Positions 6,806 through 62,100 of a stretch of DNA of 64,000 nucleotides are shown here, in pieces. The stretch is from Cenococcum geophilum (lineage: Eukaryota), in contig CP158635.1 in assembly GCA_050273025.1 (NCBI GenBank), positions 8,122,001 through 8,186,000 on the forward strand, given 5' to 3'. Under the pieces are notes generated by a model. The model worked only from the letters and a program-made list of their open reading frames with translations, ran no database searches and was not told where the DNA came from. Position numbers and translations under genes: made by a program. Position 1 is the stretch's first letter. Every line of letters starts with the position of its first letter.

Positions 6806-7032
6806 TGTTACGGCACTAGCAGAACTTGGCAGAACTACGCACCGGCAAGTTGCTACAGATTGCCGCATATTGCGGTCACGTAACGCGAAGATCGTATATA
6901 GCTTCAAGCGGCGCTCCCCTTCTTCTCCTTTCCTTTCTTTAGCTTTAGATTCTTGTTTATAGACAATCCAATTGTACAGGCTTGCACGTCCCTCATACTA
7001 TGCTCATGCCTCGATTAACTAAGTCGCTAACA
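6806..7032 (+). repeat. 3' LTR of Gypsy-1
   Basis: TGTTACGG...GCTAACA, preceded by the PPT and followed by the TSD. Confidence 0.95.
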
Positions 7033-7796
7033 CGCGGCCTAGTACTTAACTACTACTACACTAACCTTAAGAGCAACCCCCTTAGTGTCCCCTTTAATAA
7101 GCTATATAAAGCTACCTATAACTACTTTAAAGGACTAGAATATAGGCGTAATATCCTTACCTAATGGAATGCGACTAAGCTACGGACCGTAATTAATAAA
7201 AACACTAAAAAATCGACTATAGAGTGCCTGCAAATTCTTATTAAAGACCTCTGGCACCTATAGTACGGCCTTAACGCTAAGCTTTAAACAGACGACTTCC
7301 TATATAATAAACTTATTACGGCCTACTAGGAAGTAGAGCCCTATAAATACACCTACTATAAGCCTATAGATACCTTAGCTGGCCTTATTAATAATCTATA
7401 CTCCTCTATTATAACCTATAAAGTCTTAAACCTACTAAGTAGCACTTAAGCCTTTATTATAGATATTTAATATCTATAAATAAACTTAGACGTCTACTTT
7501 ACAGACCGCCGCTACTGCTAGTAGCACCTATACTAACCAAGTCCTACCTATAACCCCTGCAGCAACCCCTACATCAGGAAATTTTTTTTGGGGCTCGTTG
7601 TTGCGGTTTGCGGCAAATTGCCACAAACCGTACGGTTGCGGCAGGTGGATATGGTTAATAGCAATTTGCGTAAAACGCACGTTTTGCAACAAGTTTGCAG
7701 CACCCTAATAGTAATTTGCGCGTTTTATAACAAATTTACAGCACCTAATAGCAAATTACGGCAAAATGCTACCCTATAAATAAATAGTGCGCAAAC

Positions 7797-7925
7797 TGTA
7801 CGAATTGTACGAATTGTAAAAACTATACGAATTGTACGAATTGTACGAATTGTACGAATTGTACGAATTGTACGAATTATACGAATTGTACGAATTGTAC
7901 GAATTGTACGAATTGTAAAAACTGT
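7797..7925. repeat. 9-bp minisatellite (TGTACGAAT)n
   Basis: Directly visible tandem array. It gives the spurious TIRTIR ORF on the minus strand. Confidence 0.95.
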
Positions 7926-8097
7926 ATAAATTGTAACTATATAAATTATAATTATATTATATAATAACCAAATTATCACATATTTCCATAGATTTCTGTA
8001 GTATACTTTTAAATATATTTATATTATAACTATATAAAATGTAGAGCTATCTACTTTAGGCGTTAAGGGGAAGCCTCTCGCGGAGGCTCTAAATTAT

Positions 8098-8132
8098 CTG
8101 CCTACTTACCTGCCTGCCTACCTGCCTGCCTA

Positions 8133-8183
<51 letters not shown>

Positions 8184-8196
8184 ACCTACCTGCCTA

Positions 8197-8231
<35 letters not shown>

Positions 8232-8310
8232 ACCTACCTGTCTGTCTGTCTATACCTACCCGCCTATACCTACCTATCTGTGCCTACCTGTCTGTGCCTA
8301 CCTGTCTATG
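8098..8310. repeat. (CCTG)n/(CCTA)n microsatellite
   Basis: Directly visible. Confidence 0.95.
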
Positions 8311-8379: not shown

Positions 8380-8755
8380 TGTGGCTCTGGCGACGGTCGT
8401 GTGGCGATAACGACGGTCGTCTGGCTCTAACGGTCGTCTAGCTCTGGCGACGGTTATCTGGCTCCGGCGACGGTCGTCTAGCTCTAACGACGGTCGTCTG
8501 GCTGACGGTTGTCTAGCTCTGGCGACGGTCATCTAGCTCCGGCGACGGCCGTCTAGCTCTGACGACGGTCGTCTAGCTCTGACGACGGTCGTCTAGCTCT
8601 AGCGACGGTTATCTGGCTCCGGCGACGGTCGTCCAGCTCTGGCGACGGTTATCTGGCTCCGGCGACAGTCGTCTGGCTCTGACGACGGTCGTCTGGCTCT
8701 GACGGTCGTCTAGCTCTGGCGACGGTCGTCTGGCTCCGGCAACGGTTGTCTGCTG
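8380..8755. repeat. ~21-bp minisatellite (GACGGTCGTCTRGCTCYGGC-type unit)
   Basis: Directly visible degenerate tandem array. Confidence 0.9.
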
Positions 8756-8920
8756 GCTGTCGTTCTGGTGTCTTCCTAGGTAGGGAGGATGTAAGGAAGG
8801 GTAAAAAATGAGGTGGCTACCTAGGTGTATATAGGGGGTATACTTGGCAGAGGCACGTGTAGAGGCTATCGGGAATATAGCGGGGACCCGATAGTAGTGT
8901 GTCGCGCGCACACACACAAA

Positions 8921-9856
8921 GGCTTTGTGTAGAGCTTCGTGTAAAGCCTCCGTATGCAGAGCTTCGCGCAGAGCCTCGTGTAGAGCTTCGCGTAGAGCCT
9001 CGTGTAGAGCTTCGCGCAGAGCCTCGTGTAGAGCTTCGCGCAGAGCCTCGTGCAGAGCCTCTATATGTAGAGCTTTGTGTAGAGCTTCGTAGAGCTTTAT
9101 GCAGAGCTTCGTGTAGAGCTTTATATAGAGCTTTGTGCAGAGCTTTGTGTAGAGCTTCGTGCAGAGCCTCTGTACGTAGAGCTTCGTGTAGAGCTTCGTG
9201 TAGAGCTTCGTGTAGAGCTTCGTGTAGAGCTTCGTGTAGAGCTTCGTGTAGAGCTTCGTGTAGAGCTTTGTGTAGAGCTTCGTGCAGAGCTTCGTATAGA
9301 GCTTCGTGTAGAGCCTCGTGCAGAGCCTCTGTACCCAGAGCTTTGTGTAGAGCCTCGTGTAGAGCCTCGTGTAAAGCTTCGTGTAAAGCTTCGTGCAGAG
9401 CTTCGTGTAGAGCTTTGTGTAGAGCCTCTGTACGTAGAGCTTCGTGTAGAGCATCGTGCAAAGCTTCGTGTAGAGCATCGTGCAAAGCTTCGTGTAGAGC
9501 TTCGTGTAGAGCTTCGTATAGAGCCTCGTGCAAAGCTTCGTGTAGAGCTTCGTGTAGAGCTTCGTGTAGAGCTTCGTGTAGAGCTTCGTGTAGAGCTTCG
9601 TGTAGAGCTTCGTGTAGAGCTTCGTGCAGAGCTTCGTGCACGAATTCGTGTAGAACTTTGTGTAGAGCCTCGTGCAGAGCCTCTGTACGCAGAGTTTTGT
9701 GTAGAGCCTCGTGTAAAGCCTCGTGCAAAGCTTCGTGTAGAGCTTCGTGTAGAGCTTCGTGTAGAGCTTCGTGCAGAGCTTTGTGCAGAGCTTCGTGCAG
9801 AGCTTTATGTAAAGCCTCATGCAGAGCTTTGTATAGAGCCTCATGCAGAGCCTCTG
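8921..9856. repeat. 12-bp minisatellite (GTGTAGAGCTTC)n
   Basis: A ~930-bp array with variant units. It is the source of the (EALH)n, (TKLY)n and (CRAS)n ORFs. Confidence 0.95.
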
Positions 9857-10122
9857 CATTAGGAAATTTTTTTTTAGGCATATTGTTGCAAGCGAAAATT
9901 GGGGTCTGCAAAACCTGCGTAAGTCGCAATTTTGGTAATTTATAGCGATTTGCAGCAATTTGCTACAAACACATAGATAAGGCAGGCGCGTGCATAGGTA
10001 GCCTATGTATTTGTAGCAAATTGCTACAAATCGCCGCAAATTGCCAAATTTGCGACTTACGCAGGTTTTGCAGACCCCGATTTTCGTTTGCAACAACGTG
10101 CCCAAAAAAAAATTTCCTGATG
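9857..10122. repeat. 266-bp foldback (MITE-like) forming the right end of the TIR element
   Basis: Arms 9857-9976 and 10003-10122 are inverted copies (~120 bp) differing mostly by transitions. The internal arm starts with a third TIR copy, CATTAGGAAATTTT. Confidence 0.9.
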
Positions 10123-13100
10123 TATATAAAAGTATACCCCTATAGATAAACAAGCCAGAAATACTTTATATGTAGTAAGGAAGGATATTAGTCTATAAGG
10201 TATACCTAGGAAAAACGTAATAGGTCTAAGAAGAGATTTAATAAATAGATTAGCTAGTTTATCTTAGAATATAAAAGAGAGAAAGAAGAGAAGCCCCCTA
10301 ATAAGTTAATAGAAGCCCTTATAATTAACTTTAACCTAAATAACTAGGAATAGGAGACCCTAGAGATATTTCTAACTACTTTTAGACCTTTTACGGATAG
10401 CTAAGCCTTTAATATTACAATTATATTAGCCGACCGTTCCTTTATATACTTAGTTATACCCAAAAACTATTCCGTAAGTACCCCTATTATAGATATTATA
10501 GATTATAAGCAGGACCTATTTGTATATATTACTACAGAACGCTATACCCCTAAGGAATTTTATGGTGTTATAATTAACATAGGCGCCTCTAAGAAGTCTA
10601 CTATAGGCTATGGACAATACCTTATATATAGGACCACCGCAAATAATAATACGGACATTAATATTATATAAACTGGGGCTATAAACGTCCAATTCGGCAT
10701 TAGCTTAACTATATTAATTAAATTAGTTATAGTTAAGACCCTAATTAGCCTAGTTAACTTCTATATAGTAAAAGCAGACACCTCTTTTTTACTTTGCCTT
10801 GCGGATATAGATAGGTTATAGGTTTACTATAATAATATTACGGATACCTTAATCGGCCCCGCAACTGCCCTAGGAAGTAAGTATATTACCCTACTAATTA
10901 TATAACGATTTAGACACCCGTTTCTTATATAGGGAGAGACTTTATAGACCTATATTTAGGAATCTTTTAACTATAACCCGTGCTACCTTACTAGTATAGA
11001 GATCCACTATCTATACTACCGTTTTGGCTACCTATTAGCCAAAAAGCTATATAGAGTCCTTAAACACTCTAGACACAACAATATTAATAAGAAGGCAGTT
11101 AATTACCTAACTAAATACTACTCCTTTTACCAGAAATACGGACGTTCCCTAGGCTAATTTAAGTTCACCCTTTATAAGGACCTTAACTTTAACCACTTAG
11201 TATATGTAGACATTATATATATTAACGGCAGCCTAGTATTATATATAATTAACGAGGTAACCCGCTACTAAGCCGCCTGTTGGTTACAAAATATATCTAT
11301 AAAGTATACTTAGGATATTTTACGGACCTGCTGGATTAATACGTATATTAGACCTCCTAAGTATATTACCTACAACACTAATAGGAACTTTATTAGCAAG
11401 AAATTCTAGCAGTATGCTATAGCCATAGCTATATTAACAAAAGCTGTTCTAGTTAAGGCGTATTAGTCTATTAGGCTTATTAAGTAAGCTTACCTAGCTC
11501 TATAAAAAGCTTATTAGATTATTACGGACGAGTATAAGGATATCTAAAAGGAACTAGCTTTATAGATGGCCGTAAAAGCCGTTAATAACACCGCTAGCCC
11601 TAACGGACTAGTACCTACCCTCTTGGTTTATAGAGCCTACCTAAGGATAAGCAACCTAGGCCCCTCTACCCTATCTATTACGGAACGAGCAGCTACAATA
11701 TAGAAGGCAATGGCCGAAATAGTCAAATTATAGGCCAAATAAACTATTAATAACGCCCTATACTACCGCAACGGACCTAATACAACCTTAGTATATAACC
11801 TCCTACTTAACTCTAAAGTCCTTATATAGTGTAAAAGTGGCAGCTAGAATGGACCCTATTACCTACTAGCCGTAGAAAATAAGACGTGCTGCGTATAGCT
11901 TCCTAGCGGGCTAACTAGCTTCAGAAGTACGTCCGTAAAACCCTACTTTCGATTAAAAAATACCTATAACGTTAAACTAGATAAACTGGAAGTACCCCCA
12001 CCTACCTTAGAAGTCCCCTAGGAACTTACTAAACCCGCTAAACCTACTATAAAGCGTAGCCAAAGACGCCCCTAAAAGTATCCCGTAACTAAGAACCCTA
12101 TAATAAAGAATTACCTAACCTCCATAGGTATATCCGTAAAATAATCTCTACCTACGGATATATCAGTCCTAGTATAGGAAACCCCTTTTACGGACTTATA
12201 GCGTAAAGAGATTAACGGACTACTTAAAAAGGGCGTCTTTATGGTTATAACAAAAAAAGATATTCCGCAAGGCGTCCGTATATTCAACTTACGCTTTATT
12301 AATAAGATTAAGCACCCTAGTACTAATAAAGCTTTTAAGAAATTAAGGCTTATTATATAAGCTTATAACAACTAGGGAAAGGACCTAATTCTTACGCAAT
12401 CGCCTATAATTTAATAAGTTAGTTAATAGATTATACTTATACTTATGCCTAGACTATAGTAAACTAAACCCGTAGCCCTTTACTTACGGGACATCTCACA
12501 AGCCTACGTGCAGTTAAATACCTACCTAAGTAGGGACATCTTTATATAACCACCCTATAAGCTTAACCTATAACTAAAAACAATTTTATAGGTTATAAAA
12601 CCTCTTTATAGGGTACTAGAAGCTAGAAACCATTAATTTAAGATATACTACTAGTACCACGTTAGTAAACTTAAAATAAAACAGTTAACCTATAACCCCT
12701 GCCTCCTATACAGCCCATTAAACAGCTTAGTATTATTAAACTCTAAATAGACAATACCCTATTCCTAGTAGACTAGACCTTTACGGACACTAAAGAAACT
12801 AAACTATAAAAGGCTAAGTTCTTAGTAAAGCCGCAAGAGTAGTCAACTAAGTAGAATCCGATTAAGTTTAATAGAGGCCTAATTATATAAAAGGGCAACC
12901 TAATTAAGCTAACTTAGAAACGCTAAGCTTAAAACCTAAAGCCCGTTATAGCAAAGCCTATAGACCTTACTAGCTCCTACGGAGAGACCTATAAGACTAT
13001 AAATATAAAGAACTAATACGTTGCATAGCGTGCAAGAGGCGCCTATATTGCTATAGTCTATTAACCCAAATCTACCTACAATTTATCCTTTGCGGCCCAG

Positions 13101-37786: not shown

Positions 37787-39733
37787 TCACGCCGGAATCA
37801 ACCCAACCTGAGCCCCGTGAAAACTCTCAAACGTCAACCTCACCTCCTCCACAAACTCCCCCACTGGATCCCTACACTCCACCCCCTGAAACCCCCTCGC
37901 CAACCTCGCAAGCACATACTAAATCTCGCTCCTGGCAAGCTGCTGCGCCGGACAGTGGCGCGGCCCGCCGCTGAAGGGCACGAAGTCCCAGATGGGCCGC
38001 AGGGTGGCCCAGCGCTCGGGGCGGAAGCGGTCGGCGTAGGGGTGGAAGGTCGGTGCGGTGTAGCGCGTAGATGCTCATGCTAACAGTGTCGCCGGGGAGG
38101 AGGAGGAGCATGGTTATGCCGTAGGGTCCGCCGCCGGTGGGGACGGTGCGGCGGAGGCAGGTGCGGGAGTTGTTGGCGACGATGGGGTGGAGGCGGAGGC
38201 CTGGGGGCTTTCAGCCTGCATTTTGGAGGGTATTCCTGGCTTTGTTATCTGGTGGTGTTCAGGGCAAGGAGGTGGGGAGGAGGTGGGAGGAAGGAGGGAG
38301 GGGATGGAGGAGGTAGAGATGAAAGAGGTAGCGAAGCAGAGCACGAATCTTAAACAGCAAACTCACTCTCATTAACCGCCTATCTCAGATACGTCAGGCT
38401 CTTCAACTCTTCGAATATCACCGGCGCATCCCCGAGCCCCAGCACCTCCTCCCTCGGCCTCGCCCCACACCGCCGGATGCCGCGCCAGATCGAACACGAT
38501 GCTCGTCAGCGCAATCGCCGGGCCGTCATGCGCCGCAAGGAACACATTCAGCAGCTCCTGCCGCACCGCATCGCGGTCCCCCGTCCACTTCGCCAGCTCG
38601 TGGGCCAACACATACCGTTCGCCGCCGACATCGCCGCCGAGCAGCTTCCCGCCGCCGCCGCTTTCCAGCTCCTCCTCCTGGCCGGACTCCTTCTCCACGC
38701 TTCCCGGCTCGGCGCCGCCCTGCTACTGCTGCTGCTTGGCGGCGGCCTCCTGCCGCTGAGCCCCCTCGAAGGCCCGTCGACGCGCTGCTGCGTCCAGGCG
38801 TTGACGTAGCGGCACGCGTCGCGGAATCTGCTGTCGTGGTGGAGGAAGCGCAGGCAGCCGAGGAAGAAGCGCACGCCGACGCCCGATTTGGCGAAGTTGA
38901 AGCATTCGAAGAATTTGATGTTTTCCGGGGGGTCGGAGTGGGGTGAGTTGATGGATTCGCCGAAGATGAACTCGGAGGATGAGTCGAGGATCTGGAGGGT
39001 GGGGGGGGGGGGGGGGGGGGGGCTCTTAGCTGGGCTGGAGTTTGCTGGAATAATCGTGCTGCTGGGCTCCTGCTTTGGGAGGGTGGGATTGACTAGGGGA
39101 GAAGAAGAAGAAGAAGAAGAAGAAGAAGACGGGGAGGTGTTGCATCGAGTCTAAATAGCAGTAAGCAGACGCGCCAGCTTAGCAAACAAGGGCTTCAGAC
39201 CCACCGTCTCCCCATTCGTCGGAATCCGCTCATCATCCTGCCCGCATGGACTTCGAAGTTCTGCAACGACTCGAGATTCCTCCGTGCAAAGGTCGGCTGT
39301 ATGAGCCCGCGGCTCCGCTTCCAGCGCGACCCGTCCGAGCTAATGATGCCGTGGCCGAGCAGCGGCTCCGTTGACATGTACCGCGTGGCGCCGATGCCGA
39401 ACGAGTCCATGTTGGTCGCGAACACGGCTTGGATGTTGCACACCGCGATCGTCGACACGACTCGGCTGCTGAAGGGACGGGATTGGAATGTGTTGCCGTA
39501 GCGGGCGTGGTTGGCCTGGTTGAACCGCATACGGCGGTGCTTGCGGGTTGTGCGGAAGAATTGCAAGATGAGGTCGATGCCGAAGATGGGGTCTTTTTGC
39601 GGGAGAGAGGGCGGTGGGAGGCAACCATACTTGTGGAAAGCGAGGTAGTGGTAGAAGCGGGATTGGAGGACTAGAAATGTTTTGTAGAGGGAGGGCAACG
39701 AAGAAAAGGGAGATTGCGGTAGTGAGAGGGCAT
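37787..39733 (-). pseudogene. Cytochrome P450 (CYP52-like clan) pseudogene
   Basis: Motifs DPIFGID, LLGHGIISSDGSRWKRSR, I-helix LNVFLAAHDG, LRLHP, FRPERW and heme motif [10 protein letters not shown] lie in different frames. Several frameshifts, and in-frame TAGs near 38380 and 37920. Confidence 0.85.
39000..39128. repeat. Poly-G run and (GAA)n microsatellite inside a P450 intron
   Basis: A G run of ~22 nt from 39001 and a GAA repeat at ~39099-39128. Confidence 0.9.
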
Positions 39734-40384
39734 GGTGATTGGAGGTTGCAGATTGGAGGTGACAGATTGGAGGTGACAGATTGGAAGCGAGTAGAAAGAA
39801 GTGGAAGAAAGTGAGAGGCTCGAATTGGCAGGGCACGAATGAAGCTGAAAAACTACACATAAACCCCCTCCAAAGGTGGTTGTCACAAAGGTTGCGGCAC
39901 GGCATTAGTGAAGTTGCAAGGATGGGCAAGGTCGGTAATAGGACCTGGTCACTTCGCTTGCTCCACGGACTTTAACGATTTCATCCCTGTACGTACTGCA
40001 ACCGTGGAATATTAGACCGGTCCCTCTGGAGTATTAGGATTGTCGAACCACCTACCGTACGTGGCTAGCGGAAGATCTAGTATACTATAAATTTTATGAA
40101 CTCTTTTTTAATATAAAGCTCTTATACAGTTATAAATATGTAGATTTTATTAACCTTAATACGTCTACTAAGAGTAGAAAAAGAATATACTTAATATTAC
40201 ATGGGTAGGCCTAAGGTAGTTAGCCTTACTATAGGCACTAAAACTTTAGCTACACCTTATATAGCAAGTGTTTTAATGGTAGCGTATATCCACCAGTCCA
40301 CCATCCACCTTCTTGGCGGGAGTTGCGCGAGCCTTATATAGGAGCCAGGCAGGGGTTAAATAAGCGCCATCCCGACCCGGATAC

Positions 40385-46565: not shown

Positions 46566-46773
46566 AGTCAAGGACGCCCGCAAACGAAAGTCCCGAAACA
46601 AAGGTACGGCTAGCTTAAGCATAGGAAGCCGAATGGTGTGCAACTTATAGGAAGCGGCTTAAGCCGCGCATTGGCAACGAGTATGAGAGGTTCACATGGG
46701 ATGCGATATGAACGCATTCGTGACTGAAGCTTGCAAGCAACTGTTTATTGGATGGAACTTGGAGGCGCATATA

Positions 46774-46860
46774 TCCCTTCCAACGGTACAATTCGTCCTA
46801 TCAATTCTATTGGCTGGCTCTTATCGATAATGGTAGGACGAATTGTACCGTTGGAAGGGA
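46774..46860. mobile_element. 87-bp MITE
   Basis: TIR TCCCTTCCAACGGTACAATTCGTCCTA(T/C)CA with an inverted copy ending 46860, and TA TSD. Confidence 0.85.
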
Positions 46861-47039
46861 TACACTGCGGCAGTTCCATGTCTATTGAGCTCTCATCGAT
46901 CTTTCCGAATTAAGATCACCCTACGACCTACGCTACGTCATATATTGTCCCTCCCACTTGTCATTCCCATTATCTTATATGCTTTACTATCTTCTTAATC
47001 GCTCCACACCATCGCGCTAAGAAACCACTTAGGCATATC

Positions 47040-48793
47040 CTAATTCCAACCAAGGGAATTCTCAGCCGGAACAGGAGTTGAGATCTGCCGTCGTCGTATA
47101 GCATGTCCGTTGCTTCCTCCACTGCCACGGGTATCACGGCTTCCAGGAGAAGATTGTCCAGGACGACCGCTAGGCATCCAAGCAGCACCACCAGCCATTG
47201 ATTCATAGGTATAGTAACTGGCACTAGACACCAAGTTCGACCGTTGGTGCTTCTTGTTCCTATACCTGCGCGCAACGAGGAACATGGCAACACCGCATGC
47301 TATCGCACCTATGGTAGCTCCCGTAGCAATCCCTACACTAGTAAGCATAACTTTGCGGTTAATATTCATGTCCTTACATATCGTACCTCCAATGCCGTAT
47401 TTATTGGGTTCTGTGCTTAATAGAACAAATAGTTGGGTTGGCTCAACTTTGCCAGCAAGCGTTAATCCGTTGACAGTACGGATCTGGTTGCCATCGCTGT
47501 TAGCTAGGAGATACGAGACGTCACTTGAAAGTTCCCAGGTGAAAGAGGACAGAACTGGAATAGGAGTTACGCCAGTGGGAGTAGAAATTGGTGCTATTGG
47601 TTCAGATGTAGGGTTAGTCAGTCCTACGCCGCTGCTTAGAACGGCGCCGTTGAGAGACGGAATAACTTGAGTGGGCTGAAGCACGGAAGACGGCTGGGAG
47701 ACCAGAGAGGATACAAGTGACAGAATAGACATGCTCTCTAAGGTTGTAATAGGGGCTGGACCGGAAGCTATTGGTGAGTCTGTTAATCTAGATGCTGTCA
47801 TATATCTAACGACGGTTCCGGGAGTAGGTTGAAATATAGGTGGTAATTCCAACGAGACCTGAGCATGATTAGGCTCGCTCTCTGATGTTAGAATAAATGT
47901 CGCGATTGTTTCAAGGAGGCCGCTGGTTAAGCTTAAAGATGGTATAATGCCGGCGCCAGATGGGGCTAGAATAGTAGCGGCAAGACCTCCAGCAGATCCA
48001 ATAGAATTGGCGACAGAACTAGGAGCAACGGTGGGAAATTGAATACCTCCTGTAGAGCTTCCCCTAAGAGCCGAAGTTATCTGCAGAGCGATTTTACCTG
48101 TACCTTGGGAAGGAGATAAATCGATTATGCTTGTGAAGGGAGCAGGAGAGCTGGATGTCCCCAATACGTGGGTCTTGGGAAGAAAAATGGTGGAAAAAGT
48201 AGTGCGCCCTGGATTGAGGACGCCATTTTCGTGAGAAGACAGAGGCGAGAGACTTTTCGAGACTTGTGATGGCTTAACGTTGGTTTCTGCGATATCGCTT
48301 CCACGACTTGGTTGAATGGCAGCATTTATAGATAAACGAATAGCTGCGTTATCAAATTGGCCGATAGTAGGTTGGGTAAGCTTAACCGTCGTAACGGGTA
48401 TTCTGGATTTTTGATTTGAACAACGCGGAGGCTCTGGCAAGCCTGCCTCGAGGGCCTCAGTGCAACCTTTGCTGGATTCGTTCTCCTATGCAAGTCAACA
48501 TAGACTAATAGACATCCTAGTATCGCAATTATGTTGTCTACCTCACTGCAGTACGCTAGGAAGTCTTTCTCAGCCGTCCACTTCGCTAGTTTGGCCATGC
48601 AGCGCCCATCCGTCCAACTAGCGTATCCGAACCAGAGTGCTAGCGTGGGTAAGAATATAACACCTATTGCCTTAAGCCAGCGTAGTATAGTCTTTCTTAG
48701 GCGTAGCAGGATCCTTGAACGGGTCTTTTTGGGTCTCGATATCCTGCCTGCATGGCGGGGCTTACGTTTCGGTCGTGTGCTGGATCTAATCAT
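47040..48793 (-). CDS. Two-TM Ser/Thr/Pro-rich membrane protein with an Msb2-type signalling-mucin TM and cytoplasmic tail (exons 48793-48542, 48485-47040; ~565 aa)
   Basis: A GT-AG intron at 48541-48486 joins the two listed ORFs in frame. Basic N-terminus plus TM (IGVIFLPTLALWFGY) plus AKWTAEKDFLAYC motif, then a long S/T/P-rich region, TM VGIATGATIGAIACGVAMFLVARRY, and C-terminus RRQISTPVPAENSLGWN, matching the characteristic ISxPVxAENSLGWN end of filamentous-fungal Msb2. Confidence 0.8.
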
Positions 48794-48891
48794 ACCTTCT
48801 GATTAGGTGGGGGAGCGAAGAGATCTAGGCTGCCTGCGGTTACTTCTTTAAAGTTGGGTGGGTTTAGGGGCTTAGAGGACGCGAATTTATA

Positions 48892-50267
48892 CAAGGGGGC
48901 CTCATGAGCGGGCTGCTCGCCCTCCCTGCTAGCGCTGGCGTGGCTTTAGCCATATGTAGCGTATGAATAATCCACAGAAGCCACTAGAATACACCAGACT
49001 AGCTAGATAACATATAAAACAACGGCAGGGGGGCCTTATATCTTGTATTACAAAAATACTAAATCTTATACGCCGGCAGCGAGGCTACTATCCACTAAAA
49101 ATCTAATACCCAATTCTTTGAGATCTAGGCACCCGTCTTTCTTACCGTGAGCGTAATATTGCTTATTTCCTCTCTTAATACGCTAGTTGGAATCACTAAA
49201 GGATTAGTGCCTCCCTTAGTATACCTTACAGAACTATATTAAATTCTCTCTAGAATCCATAGACCCCTTAAAAGCAGAGGGGAAGGAAGCCGAATATTAA
49301 TACCCCAGCATAACAGCGTCTAATTGTATAAGCAAAGTAGGACCGTTGGCACCGACAGAAATCCTTTAAGGAGATTACATTTCTTAAGGGAATCTCTGCC
49401 TGTAAGCGATCTTTATATAAGGCCTTTAAAAAGGAGGGCTACTTCCGCCGCGTTGTAACAGAGAAGCCCCTTATTACGCCTAAATAACGAGAGGCCCGTC
49501 TTAAATAGGCCTATTCTTATCTAGAATGGACTCCTAAGATGTGGGCAGCAGTAATTTAAATAGATAAAGCGTCTATTTAAACCGGTGGAGGCCAGATTTT
49601 TATTACTAGAAGCGCCGAGGAGAAATATAATATTAATTGCTGTGTCCCTAAATTTAGGGGGTATTCAAGCTAGATAATCTACGGTAGTATTTCCCATAGG
49701 AATAAGGGACCTTTAGTTATTTTTAAAAAGGACTAGTTAATTAAGCTAGGATACAAGAAAAAGACGATAAATGGCAACGTCTACCGTACCTATATATACC
49801 CCAAAATTAAGACTTTTATATAGGAATTATGGCAGATACTATAATACCAGCCTATCCTTATAGAGGATAATGCCTTAATTTACTTAGTAAAAGTAACGCG
49901 CCTTGCTTAGGAACAGAACGGCATGCTAGTAATAGAATGGCCAGCAAATTCTCCTAATTTAAATCTAATTGAGAATATCTGGAGGCTGTTAAAGGGGAGG
50001 ATATAACGCCGGTTCCCTAGAATAAATGACAAAGTATAGCAGTACGCTGAGGAGGAATGGGAGAAGCTCAAACCTAAAGAATTCGAAAAGTATACAGGCA
50101 ATATAAGGGAGCGCTGCTTGGCTGTAATTGATGCAGATGGCGGCCCAACGAAATATTAGTAATTGGTTACTGAATAAGCACTGTTTTCATGTGGCGATGT
50201 GGCAATTGTAAGCACTAACGGAGGCGCTAGCAGGGAGGGCGAGCAGCCCGCTCATGAGGCCCCCTTG
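48892..50267 (+). mobile_element. Tc1-family (DD34E) transposon, RIP-inactivated
   Basis: Perfect 44-bp TIRs CAAGGGGGCCTCATGAGCGGGCTGCTCGCCCTCCCTGCTAGCGC and TA TSD. Transposase remnant ~49070-50159 with EDNA..WPANSP(N/D)LNxIENIW (34 residues between D and E) and GGPTKY*. Confidence 0.95.
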
Positions 50268-50536
50268 TAATCGTTCGGTTAGCGTTGTGGCTTAAGACGA
50301 AACAAGCCCTAATGCACTGCTCCCGACAAGGCATAGAGGAAAAAGAAAGAACTTAAAGGACATTTATGGTCGAACTCCACCATCCCATGCCTTAGAGAAG
50401 AGAGAGCTGTTATTCAAGGTCACAAAACATGGGCCTAGGATTTTAGAGGATCACCTGCAGGCAATTGCGGATTCCTTAAAATTTAGGAAATGATGGGTTA
50501 GAACTATATTTTAAACACCATCTTATTAAGTTTCTA

Positions 50537-50853
50537 TCCCATGCGCCGTTGAGGCGTACGCCAAAAGAGGCCCGTGCGGGAACACCAAAACTTTTCACAC
50601 GCTCCTCCAAGGACTCAATTCGGCTGTGCTCTATGCAATATACCCCTCTACAAAGAAGGACTTGCTGGCAGGAATACCTCAGCCTAATCAGGACACGATA
50701 GAGTCAGTTATATATCAAGTTTGAGCTTTATTATAATGATTTAGAGCCTTAATTTATTGATCAAATTCACGGCTCATTTCGCGAAGACACGATTCAATCT
50801 AGAGACTCTGATTGGTTCGCTTGTGCGTACGCCTTTCTCAACGGCGCATGGGA
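50537..50853. mobile_element. 317-bp MITE
   Basis: TIRs TCCCATGCGCCGTTGAG(AAAG)GCGTACGC and TA TSD (50535-36, 50854-55). Confidence 0.8.
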
Positions 50854-51035: not shown

Positions 51036-51272
51036 TGTTACGGCACTGGCAGAACTTGGCAGAACTTGGCAGAACTACGCACCGGCAAGTTGCCACAGAT
51101 TGCCGCATATTGCGGTCACGTGACGCGAAGATCTTATAAAACATCGAACGGCGCTGCTCTTCTTCTCCTTTCCTTTCCCTAGCTTTAGATTCTCGTTTAT
51201 AGACAATCCAATCGTACAGGCTTGCGCGTCCCTTTTGCCGTGCCCATGCCTCGATTGACTGAGTCGCTAACA
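51036..51272 (+). mobile_element. Solo LTR of the Gypsy-1 family (237 bp)
   Basis: Aligns with LTRs 1053-1279 and 6806-7032, with one extra 10-bp GGCAGAACTT unit. TSD GATTT (51031-35, 51273-77). Confidence 0.95.
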
Positions 51273-51798
51273 GATTTAAGGTTCTTGATAATCTTTACTT
51301 GCTCTTTCTTGTAAAACAGCTAAGCTGCATAAGCATGCTTACCGGTGATATCTAACGGTAATTAAACTAATTTAGCACTGGATGTCGCTACTGCAAGTAG
51401 GGAGGGCGGCCGACCCGCTCCGGCCACACCCTTGTAGGTGTTGTAGCAGGTGGTTCTCCGGAAAAACCGGTCTATTCCCGTGCGGTCGCTAGCGAAATCG
51501 GCTTCTTATGAAGGTTTCGCCCGAAATGGCTAGCGCTGCGGCCAAACCCTGGTAAGAAGGTCTGGGGTAGGGCATCCACGACAATCCACGCTGGAGCTTG
51601 GGCCACAAGCGGGCGTGTCTGTCCCTCGGGACGATCATAGAGCTGAGAAGCACCATAATAAAGGACGCGCTTTTGTTCTGTAAGTTACGAGCACCACGAT
51701 CGTACTCAACTAGCAAAGATGTCTGAAATGCAAAGCTAATATTCTACTAGTACTTCCATATTAGATGAACGTTCTTCTCGGACGTCTACCGCTGTCTC

Positions 51799-54700
51799 AT
51801 GAGCGACAGCCTTGCCGACGCCGCGATGGCGCATCCTCCTCGAACACACGAAGATTACCAAATCGGAGTCATATGCGCCTTGGCAACTGAGAAGGCCGCT
51901 ATGGTAGCGATGCTGGACGAAACTTACCCTAAATTAAAGAAGGAAAACGGCGATGAGAACGAATACACACTAGGTAGAATTGGGGTTCACAATGTCGTTA
52001 TTGCTTGCCTCCCAGCTGGCTTAATGGGAAATGGTCCTGCCGCTATTGTCGCAAACAATATGCGACGAAGCTTCCCAATCAAATTCGGCCTTATGGTCGG
52101 CGTTGGTGGTGGTGTTTGGAGCAAGAAAGATGATATTCGTCTTGGAGATGTCGTTGTCAGTCAACCCACAGGGGCTCATGGTGGGGTGGTGCAGTGGGAT
52201 TTTGGAAAGACGGGAAAAGGCGGGAAATTTCAGCGGACTGGCTCCCTGGATAAACCACCACCGGTGTTACTGCACGCGTTGCAGGAGTTGAGGACGTTTG
52301 ATCTTACAGACGGTGTTGATATTGTAGGGTCTCTTTCGTTCATGGTTCGGAACAAGCCGCGAATGGGCCGGACCTATCGATATCAAGGGGAAGATCATGA
52401 CCAGCTGTTCGAGGCCACCTATGACCACGAAGGTGACGAGACGTGCGATGAGTGCGACCCTAAGTTGATTGTGCAGAGACCGGCCCGCGAAGACTCTACT
52501 CCCAGGATACACTACGGGAACATCGCATCTGGGAACGAGGTGATGAAGCATGGTACTACTCGAGATAAAATAGCTAAGGAAGAAGGCGTAGTTTGTTTCG
52601 AGATGGAGGCAGCTGGACTGATAGACAATTTTCGGTGTCTTATGATCAGAGGAATTTGTGACTATGCGGATTCGCACAAGAACAAAATATGGCAACCTTA
52701 TGCTGCGGCCACAGCGGCAGCATTCGCTAGAGCGCTTCTTGGTTTTATCGATGAACAGGAAGTGATCAAGACGCCTCGTGAGTACATTCTTCTGCTAAAT
52801 ATCAATCTACATGTGGCATATCTTGTGTTTTCAAGATTGTATTCTCTAAAGAAAATAGTGTCATTGCCATCCTTTGTGAAGATGTGAGATATTCAGCACA
52901 TGTCATGCATTTTGTGACGTAACTTCTGTGTATTATAACTAATTCTAAGTTAGTACCTCTAAAACCACTCAGGGTGCTACCTTTTGGTCGCAACAAAGAT
53001 TTCGTTGGCCGCCAGTCTCAGTTAGATCGGCTGATCAATATTTTATATACTGAGGATACCCAGGAAGACTGTCAACGTGTAGCTCTAGTAGGCCTTGGTG
53101 GCGTTGGGAAGACCCAAATTGCCTTAGAGTGCGCCTTTAGGCTCCAAAAGATTCTTCCAGTGCTCTCCGTGTTTTGGGTCCGGGCTAGTGACACAACGAG
53201 TTTCGATAATGCGTTTCGCGAAATTGGGCAGCAACTCAAGATTCCCGGACTTGAGGACGATAAAGCAGACGTCAAAATATTAGTCAAGACTAAGTTGTCC
53301 CAAGAAAGCACAGGGAAATGGCTTATGATTATGGACAACGCGGATGACTTCGAAATATTCTATCACAATGACAACAAAGACAGCGGATCCGGTGCATTAT
53401 CTGAGTATCTTCCTTTCAGTCCTCTGGGCGCGATTCTCTACACGACTCGGGATCGTGAGGCTGCTACAAGATACGCTGGCTCAAATGTGATTGATATAGA
53501 CGAGATGGACGATGAAGAATCCAGGAAGCTCCTTGAACGAAGTCTTCAAAACAAACAACTCATCGAAGATAAGGACGGTACAATCAAACTACTGAAATTA
53601 CTTGTCAATCTTCCACTTGCAATAATGCAAGTGGCCGCATACTTAAACGCCAAGAGTAGCACCATCGCTGAGTATCTCAGAATCTATGAAGAGAGCAGTG
53701 ATAATGTTATCAAGTTGTTAGGCAAGGACTTCGAGGATATAAGGAGATATCCGGGTATGAAGAACCCAGTTGCTACGACCTGGCTTATTTCCTTCGAGCA
53801 AATCCGAATCCGAGATCCTTTAGCAGCGGACTATATGGCCTTTATTTCTTGTATCAAAGGGCAAGATATTCCCTTGGACCTGTTGCCTCTAGCTTCTAAA
53901 TTCGATAAGACAGAGGCACTTGGCACCTTAAAAGCCTTTGGGTTTATTAAAGAACGCCTCAGCGGGATATCATATGATATGCATCGATTGGTTCATACGG
54001 CAATGCAAAATTGGTTAAAGCTTAAGGACGATTTAAGAAATTGGAACCAGAAGGCTTTACAGCAAATAAACGACATTTTTCCATGGCCGAAGCATGAAAA
54101 CAGGGCTGTATGGATGAAATACCTTCCTCACACGGAGACTATTATTACTTCTATAGACCTTTTAGGTGGAGTAGAGCTACCGCCGATGTTGCTACTTAAA
54201 TTAGCAGAATGCTATCGTATTGCAGGCAACTATTCAAAAGCCGAGCTGCTAGGCCGGCAGACGCTGCAGCTTAAGGAGAAGGTGCTCGGGAAGGAGCACC
54301 CAGACACGCTCGGGATCATAATGGGCGTTGCATCATCGCTCTGCCAGCAAGGGAAGTTCGTAGAGGCCGAGGTCCTACACCAACAGACGCTGCAGCTTAA
54401 GGAGAAGGTGCTCGGGAAAGAGCACCCAGACACGCTTGCGAGCATGATGGGCCTTGCATCATCACTCTACCAGCAAGGGAAGCTCGTGGAGGCCGAGGGC
54501 ATATACCAACAGACGCTACAGCTTAAGGAGAGGGTGCTCGGGAAAGAGCACCCAGACACGCTTGCGAGCATGATGGGCCTTGCATCATCGCTCCGTTCGC
54601 AAGGGAGGCCCGCAGAGGCCGAGGCCCTACACCGGCAGACGCTGCAGCTTAAGGAGAAGGTGCTCGGGAAAGAGCACCCAGACACACTCGCGAGCATGAT

Positions 54701-55733
54701 GGGCCTTACAATATCGCTTAACCATCAAGGGAAGTTCGTAGAGGCCGAGGCCCTAGGCCGGCAGGCGCTGCAGCTTAAGGGGAAGGTGCTCGGGAAAGAG
54801 CACCCAGACACGCTCGGGAGCATAAATAACCTTGCATCATCTCTCTACCAGCAAGGGAAGTTCGTAGAGGCCGAGGCCCTACACCGGCAGGCGCTGCAGC
54901 TTAAGGAGAAGGTGCTCGGGAAAGAGCACCCAGACACGCTCGGGAGCATAAATAACCTTGCATCATCTCTCTACCAGCAAGGGAAGTTCGTAGAGGCTGA
55001 GGCCCTACACCGGCAGGCGCTGCAGCTCAGGGAGAAAGTACTCGGGGAAGAGCACCCAGACACCCTCGCGAGCATGATGAGCCTTGCATCACCACTCCAC
55101 CAGCAAGGGAAGTTCGTAGAGGCCGAGGCCCTAGACCGGCAGGCGCTGCAGCTTAAGGAGAAGGTGCTCGGGAAGGAGCACCCAGACACGCTCGCAAGCA
55201 TGATGGGCCTTGCATCATCGCTCCGTTCGCAAGGGAAGTTTATAGAGGCCGAGGCCCTAGACCGGCAGACGCTGCAGCTTAAGGAGAAGGTGCTCGGGGA
55301 AAAGCACCCAGACACGCTCACGAGCATAAATAACCTTGCATTATCTCTCTACCTGCAAGGGAAGTTTATAGAGGCCAAGGCCCTACACCGGCAGACGCTG
55401 CAGCTTAGGGAGAAAGTACTCGGGAAAGAGCACCTAGACACCCTCGCGAGTATAAATAACCTTGCATTATCGCTCCGTTTGCAAGGGAAGTTCGCAGAGG
55501 CCGAGGCCCTAGACCGACAGACGCTGCAGCTTAAGGAGAAGGTGCTCGGGAAAGAGCACCTAGACACGCTCGGGAGTATAAATAACCTTGCATCATCTCT
55601 CTACCAGCAAGGGAAGTTCGTAAAGGCCGAGGCCCTACACCGGCAGGCGCTGCAGCTTAGGGAGAAAGCACTTGGGAAAGAGCACCTAGATACCCTCGCG
55701 AGCGTAATAAGCCTTATATTACTACTCTACTAG
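51799..55733 (+). CDS. Fungal NLR (STAND) immune receptor: PNP_UDP_1 effector + NB-ARC + TPR repeats (exons 51799-52777, 52954-55733; ~1252 aa), C-terminus shortened by a RIP-type stop
   Basis: PNP_UDP motifs IGVICAL, GLMVGVGGG, DIRLGDVVVS, FEMEAAG and IRGICDYADSHKNKxWQxYAA. A phase-1 intron GTGAGT...TTAG restores frame. P-loop GLGGVGKT, Walker B WLMIMDNAD, MHRLVH, and 12 highly similar 42-aa TPRs (LGKEHPDTL). Confidence 0.92.
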
Positions 55734-56230
55734 TAATAGAAGTTTATAGAGGCTAAGGCCCTAAACCGGCAGGCGCTATAGCTTAGAGAGAAAGTACTTA
55801 GGAAAGAGTACCTAGATACCCTCGCGAGTATAAATAACCTTATATTATCTCTTTATTAGTAAGGGAAGTTTATAAAATCCGAGTCTCTATACTGGTAGAC
55901 TTTATAGCTTAAAAAGAAGGTGCTTAGGAAAGAGTACCTAGATACGCTTAGGAGTATAAATAACTTTATATTATCTCTCTATTAGTAAGGGAAGTTTATA
56001 GAAGCTAAATCTCTACTAGCAGACTCTGCAGCTTAGGGAGAAGGTACTTAGAAAAGAGTACTTAAATACGCTTATAAGTATAAATAACCTTATAATATCT
56101 CTTTATTAGTAAAGGAAGTTTATAAAGGCTAAGGTTCTATACTAGTAGATACTATAGCTTAAGAAGAAGGACCTAATAGAGCTTAAATAACCTTACACCA
56201 TTGCTTTACTAGTAAGGGAAGTTTATAGGG
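54236..56230 (+). repeat. 126-bp tandem TPR-coding array: 12 units in frame plus 3-4 RIP-destroyed units after the stop
   Basis: The unit recurs every 126 bp. Units beyond 55733 keep the pattern but with CAG>TAG, CAA>TAA and ATG>ATA changes. Confidence 0.93.
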
Positions 56231-59193: not shown

Positions 59194-62100
59194 TGTTGGT
59201 CACATAGGGTGACTCACCAATAACGACTACTCGAGTAGGTTACAGTGATGTTGGTTAATAAAGCTTATTAATTAGAAAAGAGGAAGGGCGAGGAGCTTAA
59301 GGCTCCTCGCCACGCTAGTGCCGCGGCGACACGTAATGGTAACTTGCCATCACGTGACGGCAATTTGCCGTATATAACGGCAAATTACCTTATTCCCGAC
59401 ACTAGCAACTCTTCTTTTATAGTTGCCCTCTATATATAAATACTACTTAACTATTATAACAAATATAGATCCTCCTTACTTACTATTACTATTATAATAT
59501 AAGTCTCGCTGTCCCAAAATTTACCTCTTAGCACGTGGTGCTTTCTTACTAAGGAGTTATAGGTAGACATCGTGTTAGGGCCGTTAGGGCCGCCAAGGCG
59601 CTAGCTATAAGCAAGCTAATAGCAATTTTCTATACCAGGTATAGAAAATCCTAATTGGCTAGTTAAAATCAGGGTTTATAAAGCGTTATACTCTTACTCC
59701 CTTTTAACCCAACCTTTAACTTATATACGTAAAGTATTTATGTTAATAAACACTTCTAAAGCCTTATTTGGGTTTGCCTTCGTCATTACATCTACTAGGT
59801 TATCTTAACCGTTAATCTATTAAATTTTAAAGAGTTCTCACCCTTCATAGGATTAATGAAGTGCTATAATATTAATTATAAGGCGCTTCTCCTTTATAGT
59901 ACTAAGCTTAACTAAGCATTTATAAAGGGAGTATAAGTTAGTATATACGATTATAGGGATAACGGGAAGTTCAAGTCGATCTATAATTATCTTTAGGGTA
60001 GTTCTAATTGCAATTGCTATATTAACTCCGCCAACCATTTTATATATCTCTAATACTAGAACGCTTTAAGTAACGCGCTTACTCTTAGTTAAGCTCTAAT
60101 AGATAAGATTGCCGTAGATTATAAAGTTATTCTCTCTAGTAGATTCATTTGCGATAATAATCTTATATCCTAGCTAGAAGCTAAAATCTTTATTATTTAT
60201 AAATAATCTATTAACAAATATAAAGAGCTTAGCAGTAGGAAGATTAATAGGCACGTAGAGTAGTCCCTAGTTAAGATAGTTCATTTACTAGGAGAGACGC
60301 TTATTTAGGGCAAGGACGTTATCCTTAGTTAGTTCCTAGTATTAAGCGGCAACAGAGAGATTAAATAAAGCCTTAGGTTAACAAATAGAAGCGATATAAG
60401 CTCTATAAGCGCGTTACTCTATATATCCTTATTTTGGAGAATTAACGTTAATAATATTAATCTTCTTGCCTTAACCCTTCTGGCATAAAGCAATGGAATC
60501 CTTATTTAGGGAGAGGACACATCTATTAAAGAGTAATAGTGTTATTAAATTAAGCATTTCCTTTAGCTTTACTATAAGATTTGCCTTTACTAGCTCGTCT
60601 TCTTTAAGAGCTAAGAATTAGTTATCTCCTAAGATAATTATATTATTAATTTATATGCCAATAATTCTAAATAGAGTTTCCGTAGTTATAATAAGGAAGT
60701 ATAGATTAAATATAAAAGTAGTCATCAAAAGCTTCTCTTTATAGTGCTTGCTATAGGTAGCCTACCAGTAAGTTCCTACCTCTGCAATTCCATATAATGG
60801 CTTAAGCATAACCATAATTATATCTTCGGAATATTAGTGGCGAATTTACTCTAAAAGGTATACTAATATTAAGCGCTAAAGGTACGTCTCTAATTAGGTA
60901 TAGGCCTAAGTAATATCTCACAGATAGACCGCCATTTTATTCTTTATTAGGGAGAGAGCTAGTGCAACAATAACTCGCTAACTAGCTTATTAAATTATAG
61001 GAGATTATATAAGAATTACCTCCTTACTATTGTTATTATAGCCTTAAATAACAAGCCTTAATTTCTTAAATAGGGCGTTAGTAGCTTTGCCTTTAATCTC
61101 GTTAACTATTCTTAACTTAAAGATATAAACTTTATTAAACTTAGTAGGGTTATACTTCTTAAACTTAAAGACTCCTCTTGCGATAAGACCATCGATCTCT
61201 TGCTTATTAGATACTTAGAAAGGAGCTCCTAAAGTTATAATATAACCTTCCTTTTAGAGCTATTTTACAAGTTTAAAGTTAGCCTTCTCCTTAGCTGTTA
61301 TAAAGGCCATTAATAGCTTAACTCTATTCTCGATGGCAGCAATAAATTACTCTTTAAAATTAATAAGATATTAGTAATTTCGTAATCCCTTCAGGCGACC
61401 TCTACCGCATTATAGTTGCGGCGTATCTACTACAATTATATTAGGATTGTGGTCGCCTTCTAGAGCACGTTAATCGTGGCTCTCCTTTAAGGCATCTTTT
61501 ATGGTATCCTGCAAAGGCTTAGAACTATTATCTTTATAATAAGGCTTAATAACAGTTAAACGGAATTAAGTGGGTCTATAAGGCATCTAAATAGTATAAG
61601 TTTAACTATTAACTATAATAAGTTAATATAGGCCTAACCATCCTCCCTTTTTACGCTATACGCGTACCTTAGACTAAAGTGGCAGATCAAGCGTAGTTAA
61701 GGTATTTAGGCCATTTCTTATTCCTAGTGCATTATTAACCTGGCGTATAGCGTAGAGACGTTATACCTCTTTTATTGCCTTACAAATAGCCTTAGCTTAT
61801 TATATAACAGAGGGAGATAGTAAAGAATTATTAGTTATTTAAGGGTAGGCGCTAAAGACTAGCAATGTAGGTATAAGTCTATCTGGGCCAGTGGAATCGT
61901 TAATAGCTTTAACAGCTATTTACAAGGTAAGTTCTTCGCTAGCATCCTCTAGTTCTAAAGAAATAATCTTATATACGCAGTATAATAGCGTATAGTATTA
62001 TTTTACTTTTCTAACACTATTATATGCCTTAATAGGGACTTCCTTAACCTTAATTGCTATTACCTTTATCTATTATCGGAACTCCATAGATAAGAAGTTC

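Follow-up and report, generated by a model that had tools for sequence, protein, structure and literature searches.

Can a protein that ends like the fungal surface sensor Msb2 but does not begin like it be the product of a real gene, and what could such a protein do at the membrane? Msb2 is the best-studied host and substrate surface sensor of filamentous fungi, where it is regarded as a single-copy mucin with a signal peptide. Cenococcum geophilum is a tree-root symbiont and a dominant ectomycorrhizal fungus that is abundant in forests. The question was raised by a 64,000-nucleotide (nt) stretch of its genome (assembly GCA_050273025.1, contig CP158635.1, positions 8,122,001 to 8,186,000), which is referred to here as the window. 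A first-pass annotation of the window described a gene in which an Msb2 tail was fused to an unrelated signal-anchor module. In the literature searched on Msb2-like proteins and paralogues and on Cenococcum with Msb2, no such protein was described. We hold with moderate confidence that the locus is a real, transcribed mosaic gene in which a front end from a two-span membrane family is joined through a mucin-like part to the span and tail of Msb2, and that it is a fast-evolving side copy with uncertain output. Direct support was obtained for its anatomy and homologies, for the transcript with both splice joints, and for the family and its intron.

Gene structure and public models

The mosaic gene was located on the minus strand, with the ATG at 48793 and the stop at 47042-47040, as the first-pass annotation had placed it. 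Exon 2 (48485-47040) was one uninterrupted 481-codon frame. This frame contained both the Msb2 tail and the second half of the module, so the mosaic was independent of any splice. The joined product had 565 residues with intron 1 removed, and 547 residues if intron 2 was also removed. The 56-nt intron 1 that had been proposed at 48541-48486 had GT..AG ends and was spliced in both public models and in one RNA contig of run X3.

An exact-sequence cluster was found for the protein, with the named records OCK98239.1 / XP_067507735.1 (500 aa) and XTI82583.1 (482 aa) of Cenococcum geophilum, which were annotated as hypothetical. Both public gene models spliced intron 1 but began at an internal Met, residue 66 (MAKLAKW...). 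They were thus without the basic N-terminus and the first transmembrane span (TM1) encoded by 48596-48793, both of which were present in the transcript and conserved in the family. The newer public model also dropped 54 nt (47386-47333). As a side observation, the 90%-identity cluster of P0003 also contained four short proteins (36-55 residues; P0153) that carry the name glycine C-acetyltransferase and have no visible similarity to it, and these members are probably a clustering artefact.

Table 1. Coordinates of the mosaic gene and of the adjacent insertion (positions in the window; TM, transmembrane span; UTR, untranslated region)
Feature	Position	Strand	Evidence
5' UTR	48794..48848	-	contig ends in three RNA runs: 48844 (X3, X7), 48848 (X1)
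Exon 1, 84 codons: basic N-terminus, TM1, first half of Cys loop (WTAEKDFLAYC)	48542..48793	-	
TM1, signal-anchor span, residues ~39-60	48614..48679	-	Kyte-Doolittle 1.6, family conservation
Intron 1, 56 nt, GT..AG, phase 0, family-conserved position	48486..48541	-	
Exon 2 start: second half of Cys loop (GC...L.PP.C)	48417..48485	-	BLASTP against L006, motif
Ser/Thr/Pro-rich ectodomain, ~339 residues, no detectable domain	47400..48416	-	
Msb2-derived juxtamembrane stretch, TM2 and cytoplasmic tail, 119 residues	47043..47399	-	
Intron 2, optional, 54 nt, GT..AG; in-frame loss of 18 residues directly before TM2	47333..47386	-	
TM2 core	47271..47330	-	Kyte-Doolittle >=1.6 at residues 467-489 of 565; AlphaFold2 helix at residues 384-411 of exon 2
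3' UTR	46733..47039	-	RNA contigs ending at 46733-46813
Degenerate Tc1/mariner-like element	48892..50267	.	44-nt perfect inverted ends, TA at 48890-48891 and 50268-50269

The Msb2-derived span and tail

Besides two close relatives, a word-index search with exon 2 returned 16 proteins that were more distant. These aligned only to the final 21-26% of exon 2 with 46-65% identity, and all 16 carried PF27810, which is MSB2_C by its Atlas name. One relative, P0059, was named 'multicopy suppressor of a budding defect'. In a second search, PF27810 was present in all of the 120 matches listed of 208. It was absent from the precomputed Pfam annotation of P0003 and P0004. Residues 363-481 of exon 2 matched the profile of 16 Msb2 C-terminal parts (hhalign 99.9%, E 1.9e-36, 62% identity). 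Across 136 Msb2-family sequences, 35 columns had a conservation of 90% or more; the tail retained 29 of them, the terminal AENSLGWN included. These results confirmed that the Msb2 C-terminal hallmark recognized in the first pass was real. In comparison with P0005, the conserved columns were kept more often than the others (29/35 vs 41/73, Fisher p 0.009). An Atlas search with the tail had a best score of 0.89, which provided leads only.

In a tree of the tail region, the mosaic protein formed a pair with P0004 on a long stem of 0.62 changes per column. In that tree, the pair was placed inside the Pleosporales-like Msb2 group (Shimodaira-Hasegawa-like approximate likelihood ratio test, SH-aLRT, 82). 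Judged from these alignments and this tree, a Pleosporales-like MSB2 gene appears to be the ancestor of the back end.

The N-terminal module and the two-span Cys-loop family

The signal peptide of the Msb2 and Hkr1 mucins was not found at the N-terminus. The first 38 residues had a net charge of +16 and were followed by a hydrophobic stretch, and the best 19-residue Kyte-Doolittle window of TM1 was 1.6, starting from residue 35. These sequence properties agreed with the earlier description of a basic segment plus a span rather than a signal peptide. Among the listed Msb2 relatives, many were fragments or gene calls with other starts, and those with a true N-terminus opened with a short, signal-peptide-like hydrophobic leader. 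The module motif was found in none of the listed Msb2 relatives longer than 600 aa.

The module had relatives of its own. A phmmer search with exon 1 against 1.84 billion representatives returned 10 proteins (E 3e-8 to 8e-4), including KAK0726626.1 of Apiosordaria backusii. All of them were short gene calls reading V right after the C-x-x codons. In alignment A3, the invariant positions were W54, D62, L69, W72, K76, F78, and C82. The WTAxKDF...C motif, which had been noticed from one sequence, was therefore a genuine family signature, as these 10 matches indicated.

A metagenome scan with the module alignment gave 36 loci. GT was located exactly on the codon boundary after C-x-x in 30 of them and a few bases away in the other 6. 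By pattern match, an intron of 41-153 nt followed by an in-frame GC..A....L.PP was seen in 33 of the 36 loci. In 20 loci, the PP motif and the second hydrophobic span were 12-33 residues apart; the distance was 61 in L021 and 326 in L003 and L006. Downstream of the second span, the family members carried unrelated basic cytosolic sequences. Exon 2 of the mosaic gene opened with the family motif (GCTEALEAGLPEPP), and the gene held both halves of the Cys loop (…FLAYCSE / ENESSKGCTEALEAGLPEPPRC). Its loop of ~360 residues from PP to TM2 departed from the short loop that is the norm in the family. None of the family members tried matched a Pfam model in the local Pfam copy. A search of proteins of 437-2000 aa with the module alignment for fused forms of the module was empty, which is weak evidence.

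Since the loop motif, the intron site, and the second span recurred across loci, the family appears to be a membrane hairpin with a ~60-residue Cys loop and a position-conserved intron. The front end of the mosaic gene most plausibly comes from this widespread, undescribed two-span family of Pezizomycotina. The first-pass annotation had described a new two-TM ectodomain. The unrelated signal-anchor module and the two spans were upheld, and the newness was not, the module being the standard front end of a widespread fungal family.

An additional observation concerned the C-termini of the family. The C-terminus of the member at L033:1115-1798, which is predicted to be cytosolic, was a fungal zinc finger of the C2H2 type (PF24537, E 3.4e-10), and L029 and L030 had a similar-looking C-terminus. 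These three are candidate membrane-tethered transcription factors.

The ectodomain and the absent HMH domain

The conserved Hkr1-Msb2 homology (HMH) domain was searched for ahead of TM2. The hhalign profile match ended at exon 2 residue 363, with nothing further upstream. With a hidden Markov model (HMM) of 55 canonical HMH regions, residues 1-362 were not reported, although 128 of 300 shuffles were. The P0004 ectodomain ranked 92 of 131 rows, the rest being P0161 and shuffles, and the positive control P0161 scored 70.9 bits. The segment FTWEL..ANSDGNQI resembled the first strand of HMH, but residues 299-345 were aligned only in an alternative hhalign alignment (E 0.072, probability 0.8%). Low-stringency hhalign extended the alignment into the ectodomain at near-zero confidence. 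No HMH domain was thus detectable by hhalign or HMM before the span, in agreement with the first reading.

The Ser/Thr-rich feature of mucins was present. Residues 108-446 contained 26.8% Ser+Thr and 36.6% Ser+Thr+Pro, and neither tandem repeats nor a Pfam match was found in the ectodomain. AlphaFold2 modelling of exon 2 gave a mean predicted local distance difference test (pLDDT) score of 31.5, with only the TM2 helix modelled and the ectodomain below 50 throughout; its 11-row alignment was too shallow for this to be a proof of disorder. According to PMC13233613, yeast HMH binds the CR domain of Opy2. In Magnaporthe MoMsb2, the HMH and the Ser/Thr-rich region were essential and the tail was dispensable for the phenotypes tested, according to PMC3024261. 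Since the HMH is missing, the canonical Msb2 sensor role would be impossible for the mosaic protein.

We infer the topology, the glycosylation, and any signalling effect of this protein. From the positive-inside rule, the predicted layout is a basic cytosolic N-terminus, TM1, and a small Cys loop. These would be followed by a ~340-residue Ser/Thr/Pro-rich ectodomain that is probably glycosylated and unstructured. An Msb2-type TM2 and an Msb2-type cytosolic tail would then end the protein, so that it would be anchored in the membrane at both ends. At most, the mosaic protein would present an Msb2-like tail at the membrane.

A second lineage with the module and Msb2 parts

L003, L004, and L006 were counted as one lineage because they were near-identical contigs of one study series. 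They belonged to the same 'DG[HR]C' subgroup as the mosaic gene, with the extra Cys in DGHC and PP.C. Their exon 1 was 34-36% identical to that of the mosaic gene, and the exon 2 openings of the mosaic gene and L006 were identical at 12 of 24 positions (BLASTP E 7e-4). Exon 2 in this lineage was one 390-codon frame that contained the loop motif, a Ser/Thr-rich stretch, an HMH domain, a span, and a tail. The HMH domain of L006 was recognized by hhalign (98.1%, E 6.9e-14, covering residues 176-316 only) and by the HMM (70.9 bits). The span and 24-residue basic tail of this lineage were not Msb2-like. In an HMH tree, the branch of the L006 domain had a length of 5.5 changes per column, and the domain could not be placed.

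From these comparisons, fusions of the module to Msb2 parts occur in at least two lineages with complementary retention, HMH in L006 and the tail in Cenococcum. Since the second lineage carries HMH behind the same module, the combination of the module with Msb2 parts is not unique to the Cenococcum locus and may be old. The two lineages may go back to a single old fusion followed by differential loss, or to two captures that took place separately.

Transcription and splicing

Of the 24 listed runs (18 studies), 20 contained 86-89% of the sampled words of 46800-49100, and these included root and fungal metatranscriptomes. Contigs of X3, X7, and X1 spanned 46813, 46733, and 46743 to 48844, 48844, and 48848, respectively, with zero differences, giving a transcript of about 46733..48848. 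The X7 contig read into adapter letters at 48844. No ATG was present from 48848 to 48793 in the sequence. The first AUG of the transcript was that at 48793, which meant that the longer, family-conserved N-terminus was encoded. In all three contig runs, the depth was zero across 48966-49238, inside the Tc1 element, and the flanking bins had some depth. Only X3 had a depth of 4.09 in 48875-48965, caused by a 383-nt contig of which just 32 nt matched. The loose ends of this contig resembled another copy of the Tc1 inverted end.

Both introns were spliced in part of the contigs; contigs give no splice ratios and drop rare forms. In X3, intron 1 was spliced at a depth of 8.4 and unspliced at 9.0, and intron 2 was retained in a 1675-nt contig. 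In X7, the main 2082-nt contig (depth 27.1) had intron 2 spliced. X1 contained intron 2 both spliced (57-mer, 8.2) and unspliced (111-mer, 11.4). Of the models, P0152 lacked intron 2 and P0156 kept it. Intron 1 was still present in the main contigs of both X7 and X1.

The protein id 674375 was not found in 12 of the 16 supplement files of PMC5023957 or in 10 of the 11 of PMC5816826. A scan for bacterial-type promoters and terminators was empty, and such a scan is not applicable to a fungus.

Relatives and selection

A relative with 93% DNA identity was L001, a 2310-nt metagenome contig. It covered exon 1 with the intron behind it, and then 238 codons of exon 2, at which point the contig ended. 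Every coding indel between L001 and the mosaic gene was a multiple of three, and the frames were open. The ratio of nonsynonymous to synonymous substitution rates (dN/dS) for exon 1 was 0.26 (synonymous/nonsynonymous changes 7 / 6, chi-square p 0.012). The ectodomain part of exon 2 gave a dN/dS of 0.69 (14.5 / 28.5, p 0.26). For both regions together, the value was 0.54 (21.5 / 34.5, p 0.029), and overall constraint looks weak. The P0004-type proteins belonged to the L001 lineage and showed R-to-M changes in the RRYRN box.

The Tc1 insertion and the surrounding window

The Tc1 interior was riddled with stops, and its transposase frame was destroyed; a weak HTH_Tnp_Tc3_2 match (E 0.088) was obtained. 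The element lay upstream of the gene, at a distance of 98 nt to the ATG and 44-48 nt to the transcript start. With its inverted ends and TA duplication, it bore out the earlier report of a Tc1 inserted ~100 bp upstream of the ATG. L001 aligned to 48890-47771 and then straight to 50280-50537, which corresponded to an empty TA site. Since the empty site was found next to the same two-exon gene, Tc1 was younger than the gene and did not build it. On the proposed history, the fusion would be older than the local Tc1 insertion, and its counterpart in another fungus would have kept HMH instead of the tail.

The first pass had also placed the gene inside a candidate mobile element, and this was not borne out: no repeats or recombinase delimiting a gene-carrying element were found in the window. 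A search for element-bounding large repeats around 45-56 kb gave only scattered repeats resembling transposable elements (TEs), such as the inverted arms 12334-12425 / 60979-61070 (83%).

Several side observations were made around the gene. At 48885-48891, the Tc1 TA duplication and its flank read TATAAAT, ~45 nt upstream of the transcript 5' ends (48844-48848). L001, without Tc1, read CATAAAT at this site. A 238-bp segment (51036-51273) was missing in L001 and had repeat copies at 1055-1279 and 6808-7032 with 86-94% identity. It represents another small insertion between the mosaic gene and its neighbour. This neighbour across Tc1 (51769-55733, plus strand) consisted of two adjoining frames with PNP_UDP_1 (E 1.2e-11), NB-ARC, and 12 TPR_10 repeats, and it resembled a fungal NOD-like receptor (NLR). 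The TPR units were 126-nt tandem copies with 79-87% identity from ~54100 to 56050.

Further away, 8609-10165 was a 518-codon stop-free frame of 12-nt tandem units, open in other frames on both strands and with no Pfam match. It was flanked by CTGC-type and 9-nt microsatellites at 7767-8281. At 39198-39971 (minus strand), a 258-codon frame in a 60% GC island matched the cytochrome P450 profile weakly and only at its positions 12-117 (E 1.1e-4) and may be a gene fragment. Most of the 64 kb had a GC content of 26-40% and the gene islands one near 48-60%, which was consistent with a repeat-rich genome.

Discussion

The mosaic protein can be placed between several known systems. It shared with Msb2 of filamentous ascomycetes (PF27810; MoMsb2, FoMsb2, MsbA) the juxtamembrane stretch, span, and tail, with 54-65% identity to Pleosporales proteins and the end AENSLGWN, and it also had a long Ser/Thr/Pro-rich extracellular region ahead of the span. 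In contrast to them, it had a basic segment, TM1, and a Cys loop instead of a signal peptide, no detectable HMH, 565 residues compared with ~650-1800 in full-length proteins, and a fast-evolving tail (stem 0.62 changes per column). With the two-span Cys-loop family (L002-L036; KAK0726626.1), the likeness lay in the cytosolic N-segment, TM1, W..D....LA.WT..KDF...C, the phase-0 intron, and GC..A....L.PP. However, the members had unrelated C-terminal parts and a short loop, whereas TM2 and the tail of the mosaic protein were Msb2-derived behind a loop of ~360 residues. In the L003/L004/L006 gene, the module was the same and had two extra Cys, and it was followed by an extended Ser/Thr-rich ectodomain and another span. 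This gene had HMH and no Msb2-like tail, and the mosaic gene was the reverse. The general plan of yeast Hkr1 and Msb2 was similar in the mucin-like ectodomain, the span beside the tail, and the cytosolic signalling tail. The HMH-dependent Opy2 binding would be inapplicable to the HMH-less mosaic protein.

Several results weighed against the preferred reading. The ectodomain dN/dS of 0.69 was indistinguishable from neutral (p 0.26). The P0004 lineage was without ~105 ectodomain residues and stopped 17 residues early. Between the mosaic protein and P0004, the tail differed at 22 of 109 positions (20%) and the ectodomain at 37 of 238 (15.5%), and the derived tail changes were 7 to 7 between the two lineages. 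Tail divergence at least equal to that of the ectodomain, together with the 17-residue loss in one lineage, argued against strong current constraint on tail function. The tail thus appears recognisable from its sequence, yet its constraint is not visibly stronger than that in the mucin-like part. The hydrophobicity of TM1 (1.6) was just at the usual threshold. An approximately unbiased (AU) test did not reject a deep-paralogue position of the tail outside all classes (p 0.22), which meant that neither the age of the fusion nor the number of fusion events, one or two, was fixed. Intron 1 was kept by the main X7 and X1 contigs and by about half of the local depth in X3. When it is retained, the frame from 48793 stops at 48326 after 155 codons, so that no protein with the Msb2 tail would be made. 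In the raw-read run X21, 0 reads were found on the gene body in 9.29 million reads, ~12% of the run. The weak constraint and the frequent retention of intron 1 suggested low output and possibly ongoing decay.

One alternative is that the locus is a transcribed pseudogene in slow decay, open by recency, with little or no full-length protein and no function. The near-neutral ectodomain, the 20% tail divergence that was equal in both lineages, and the deletion and premature stop in the P0004 lineage spoke for it. Intron 1 retention in the main contigs of two of the three contig runs and the Tc1 element 44-48 nt upstream of the transcript start also favoured it, as did the absence of the gene from the 3,676 regulated genes in Supplementary Data 10 of PMC5023957, in a search that covered 12 of the 16 files. 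However, the 565-codon frame was intact, all coding indels relative to L001 were multiples of three, and exon 1 had a dN/dS of 0.26 (p 0.012). The splice sites of both introns were in use, and the terminal Msb2 motif was intact. We consider a pseudogene rather unlikely, though with some weight behind it. The first-pass annotation had suggested that the protein could feed into or compete with mitogen-activated protein kinase (MAPK) signalling. A working regulator of a Kss1/Fmk1/Pmk1-type MAPK pathway, as a putative decoy or unsheddable alternative input whose tail would bind the normal cytosolic partners, seems quite unlikely to us. Its case would be built on the 29 of 35 conserved tail columns and the full AENSLGWN, on the preferential retention of these columns relative to P0005 (29/35 vs 41/73, p 0.009), and on transcription in many root and fungal metatranscriptomes. 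According to PMC13233613, yeast Msb2 reaches Ste20 via Bem1. Against this, the tail was no better conserved than the ectodomain in close relatives and was truncated in one lineage, the output of the gene would be limited by intron 1 retention, and the Magnaporthe Msb2 tail was dispensable for the phenotypes examined in PMC3024261.

It was also considered whether this gene could be the only MSB2 of the organism, as a highly derived orthologue. A canonical MSB2 of Cenococcum was not found, and no protein with a Cenococcum name was present among the 18 exon 2 matches or the 120 listed of 208, but the match lists missed many well-known Pleosporales genomes, which makes this absence weak evidence. 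The only paper found that named both Cenococcum geophilum and Msb2 was an amplicon survey, and the terms Msb2, Sho1, and mucin were absent from all 16 supplements of PMC5023957. However, the listed Msb2 relatives with a true N-terminus opened in a signal-peptide-like manner, and none of more than 600 aa had the module motif. PF27810 was present in 16 of 16 distant matches and in all 120 listed, and the mosaic protein aligned with them over its last 119 residues only. By its front end, it belongs to another family, one that is present alongside Msb2 across fungi. A sole, derived orthologue is therefore highly improbable. A real mosaic side copy with uncertain output is the reading that we prefer.

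If the gene is merely decaying, its value is smaller, and it would be an example of how TE-rich genomes still transcribe remnants of mosaic genes. The work also provides a corrected gene model for Cenococcum geophilum. It further points to a widespread two-span family with a conserved intron that was missed by the Pfam copy used, some members of which end in a cytosolic zinc finger. On a more speculative view, which we regard as doubtful, the Pezizomycotina would have an unrecognised double-anchored class of Msb2-like proteins. In this class, the signal peptide would have given way to a signal-anchor Cys-loop module, and one cut would not suffice to release a mucin ectodomain tethered at both ends. 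The parts of Msb2 that are kept would differ between lineages and would thereby provide parallel or antagonistic MAPK inputs, and the Cenococcum copy would tune sensing at the root interface. Taken together, the two lineages form a natural domain-deletion series, with the tail without HMH in one and HMH without the tail in the other, both behind the same foreign anchor. This series could separate the functions of the tail and HMH.

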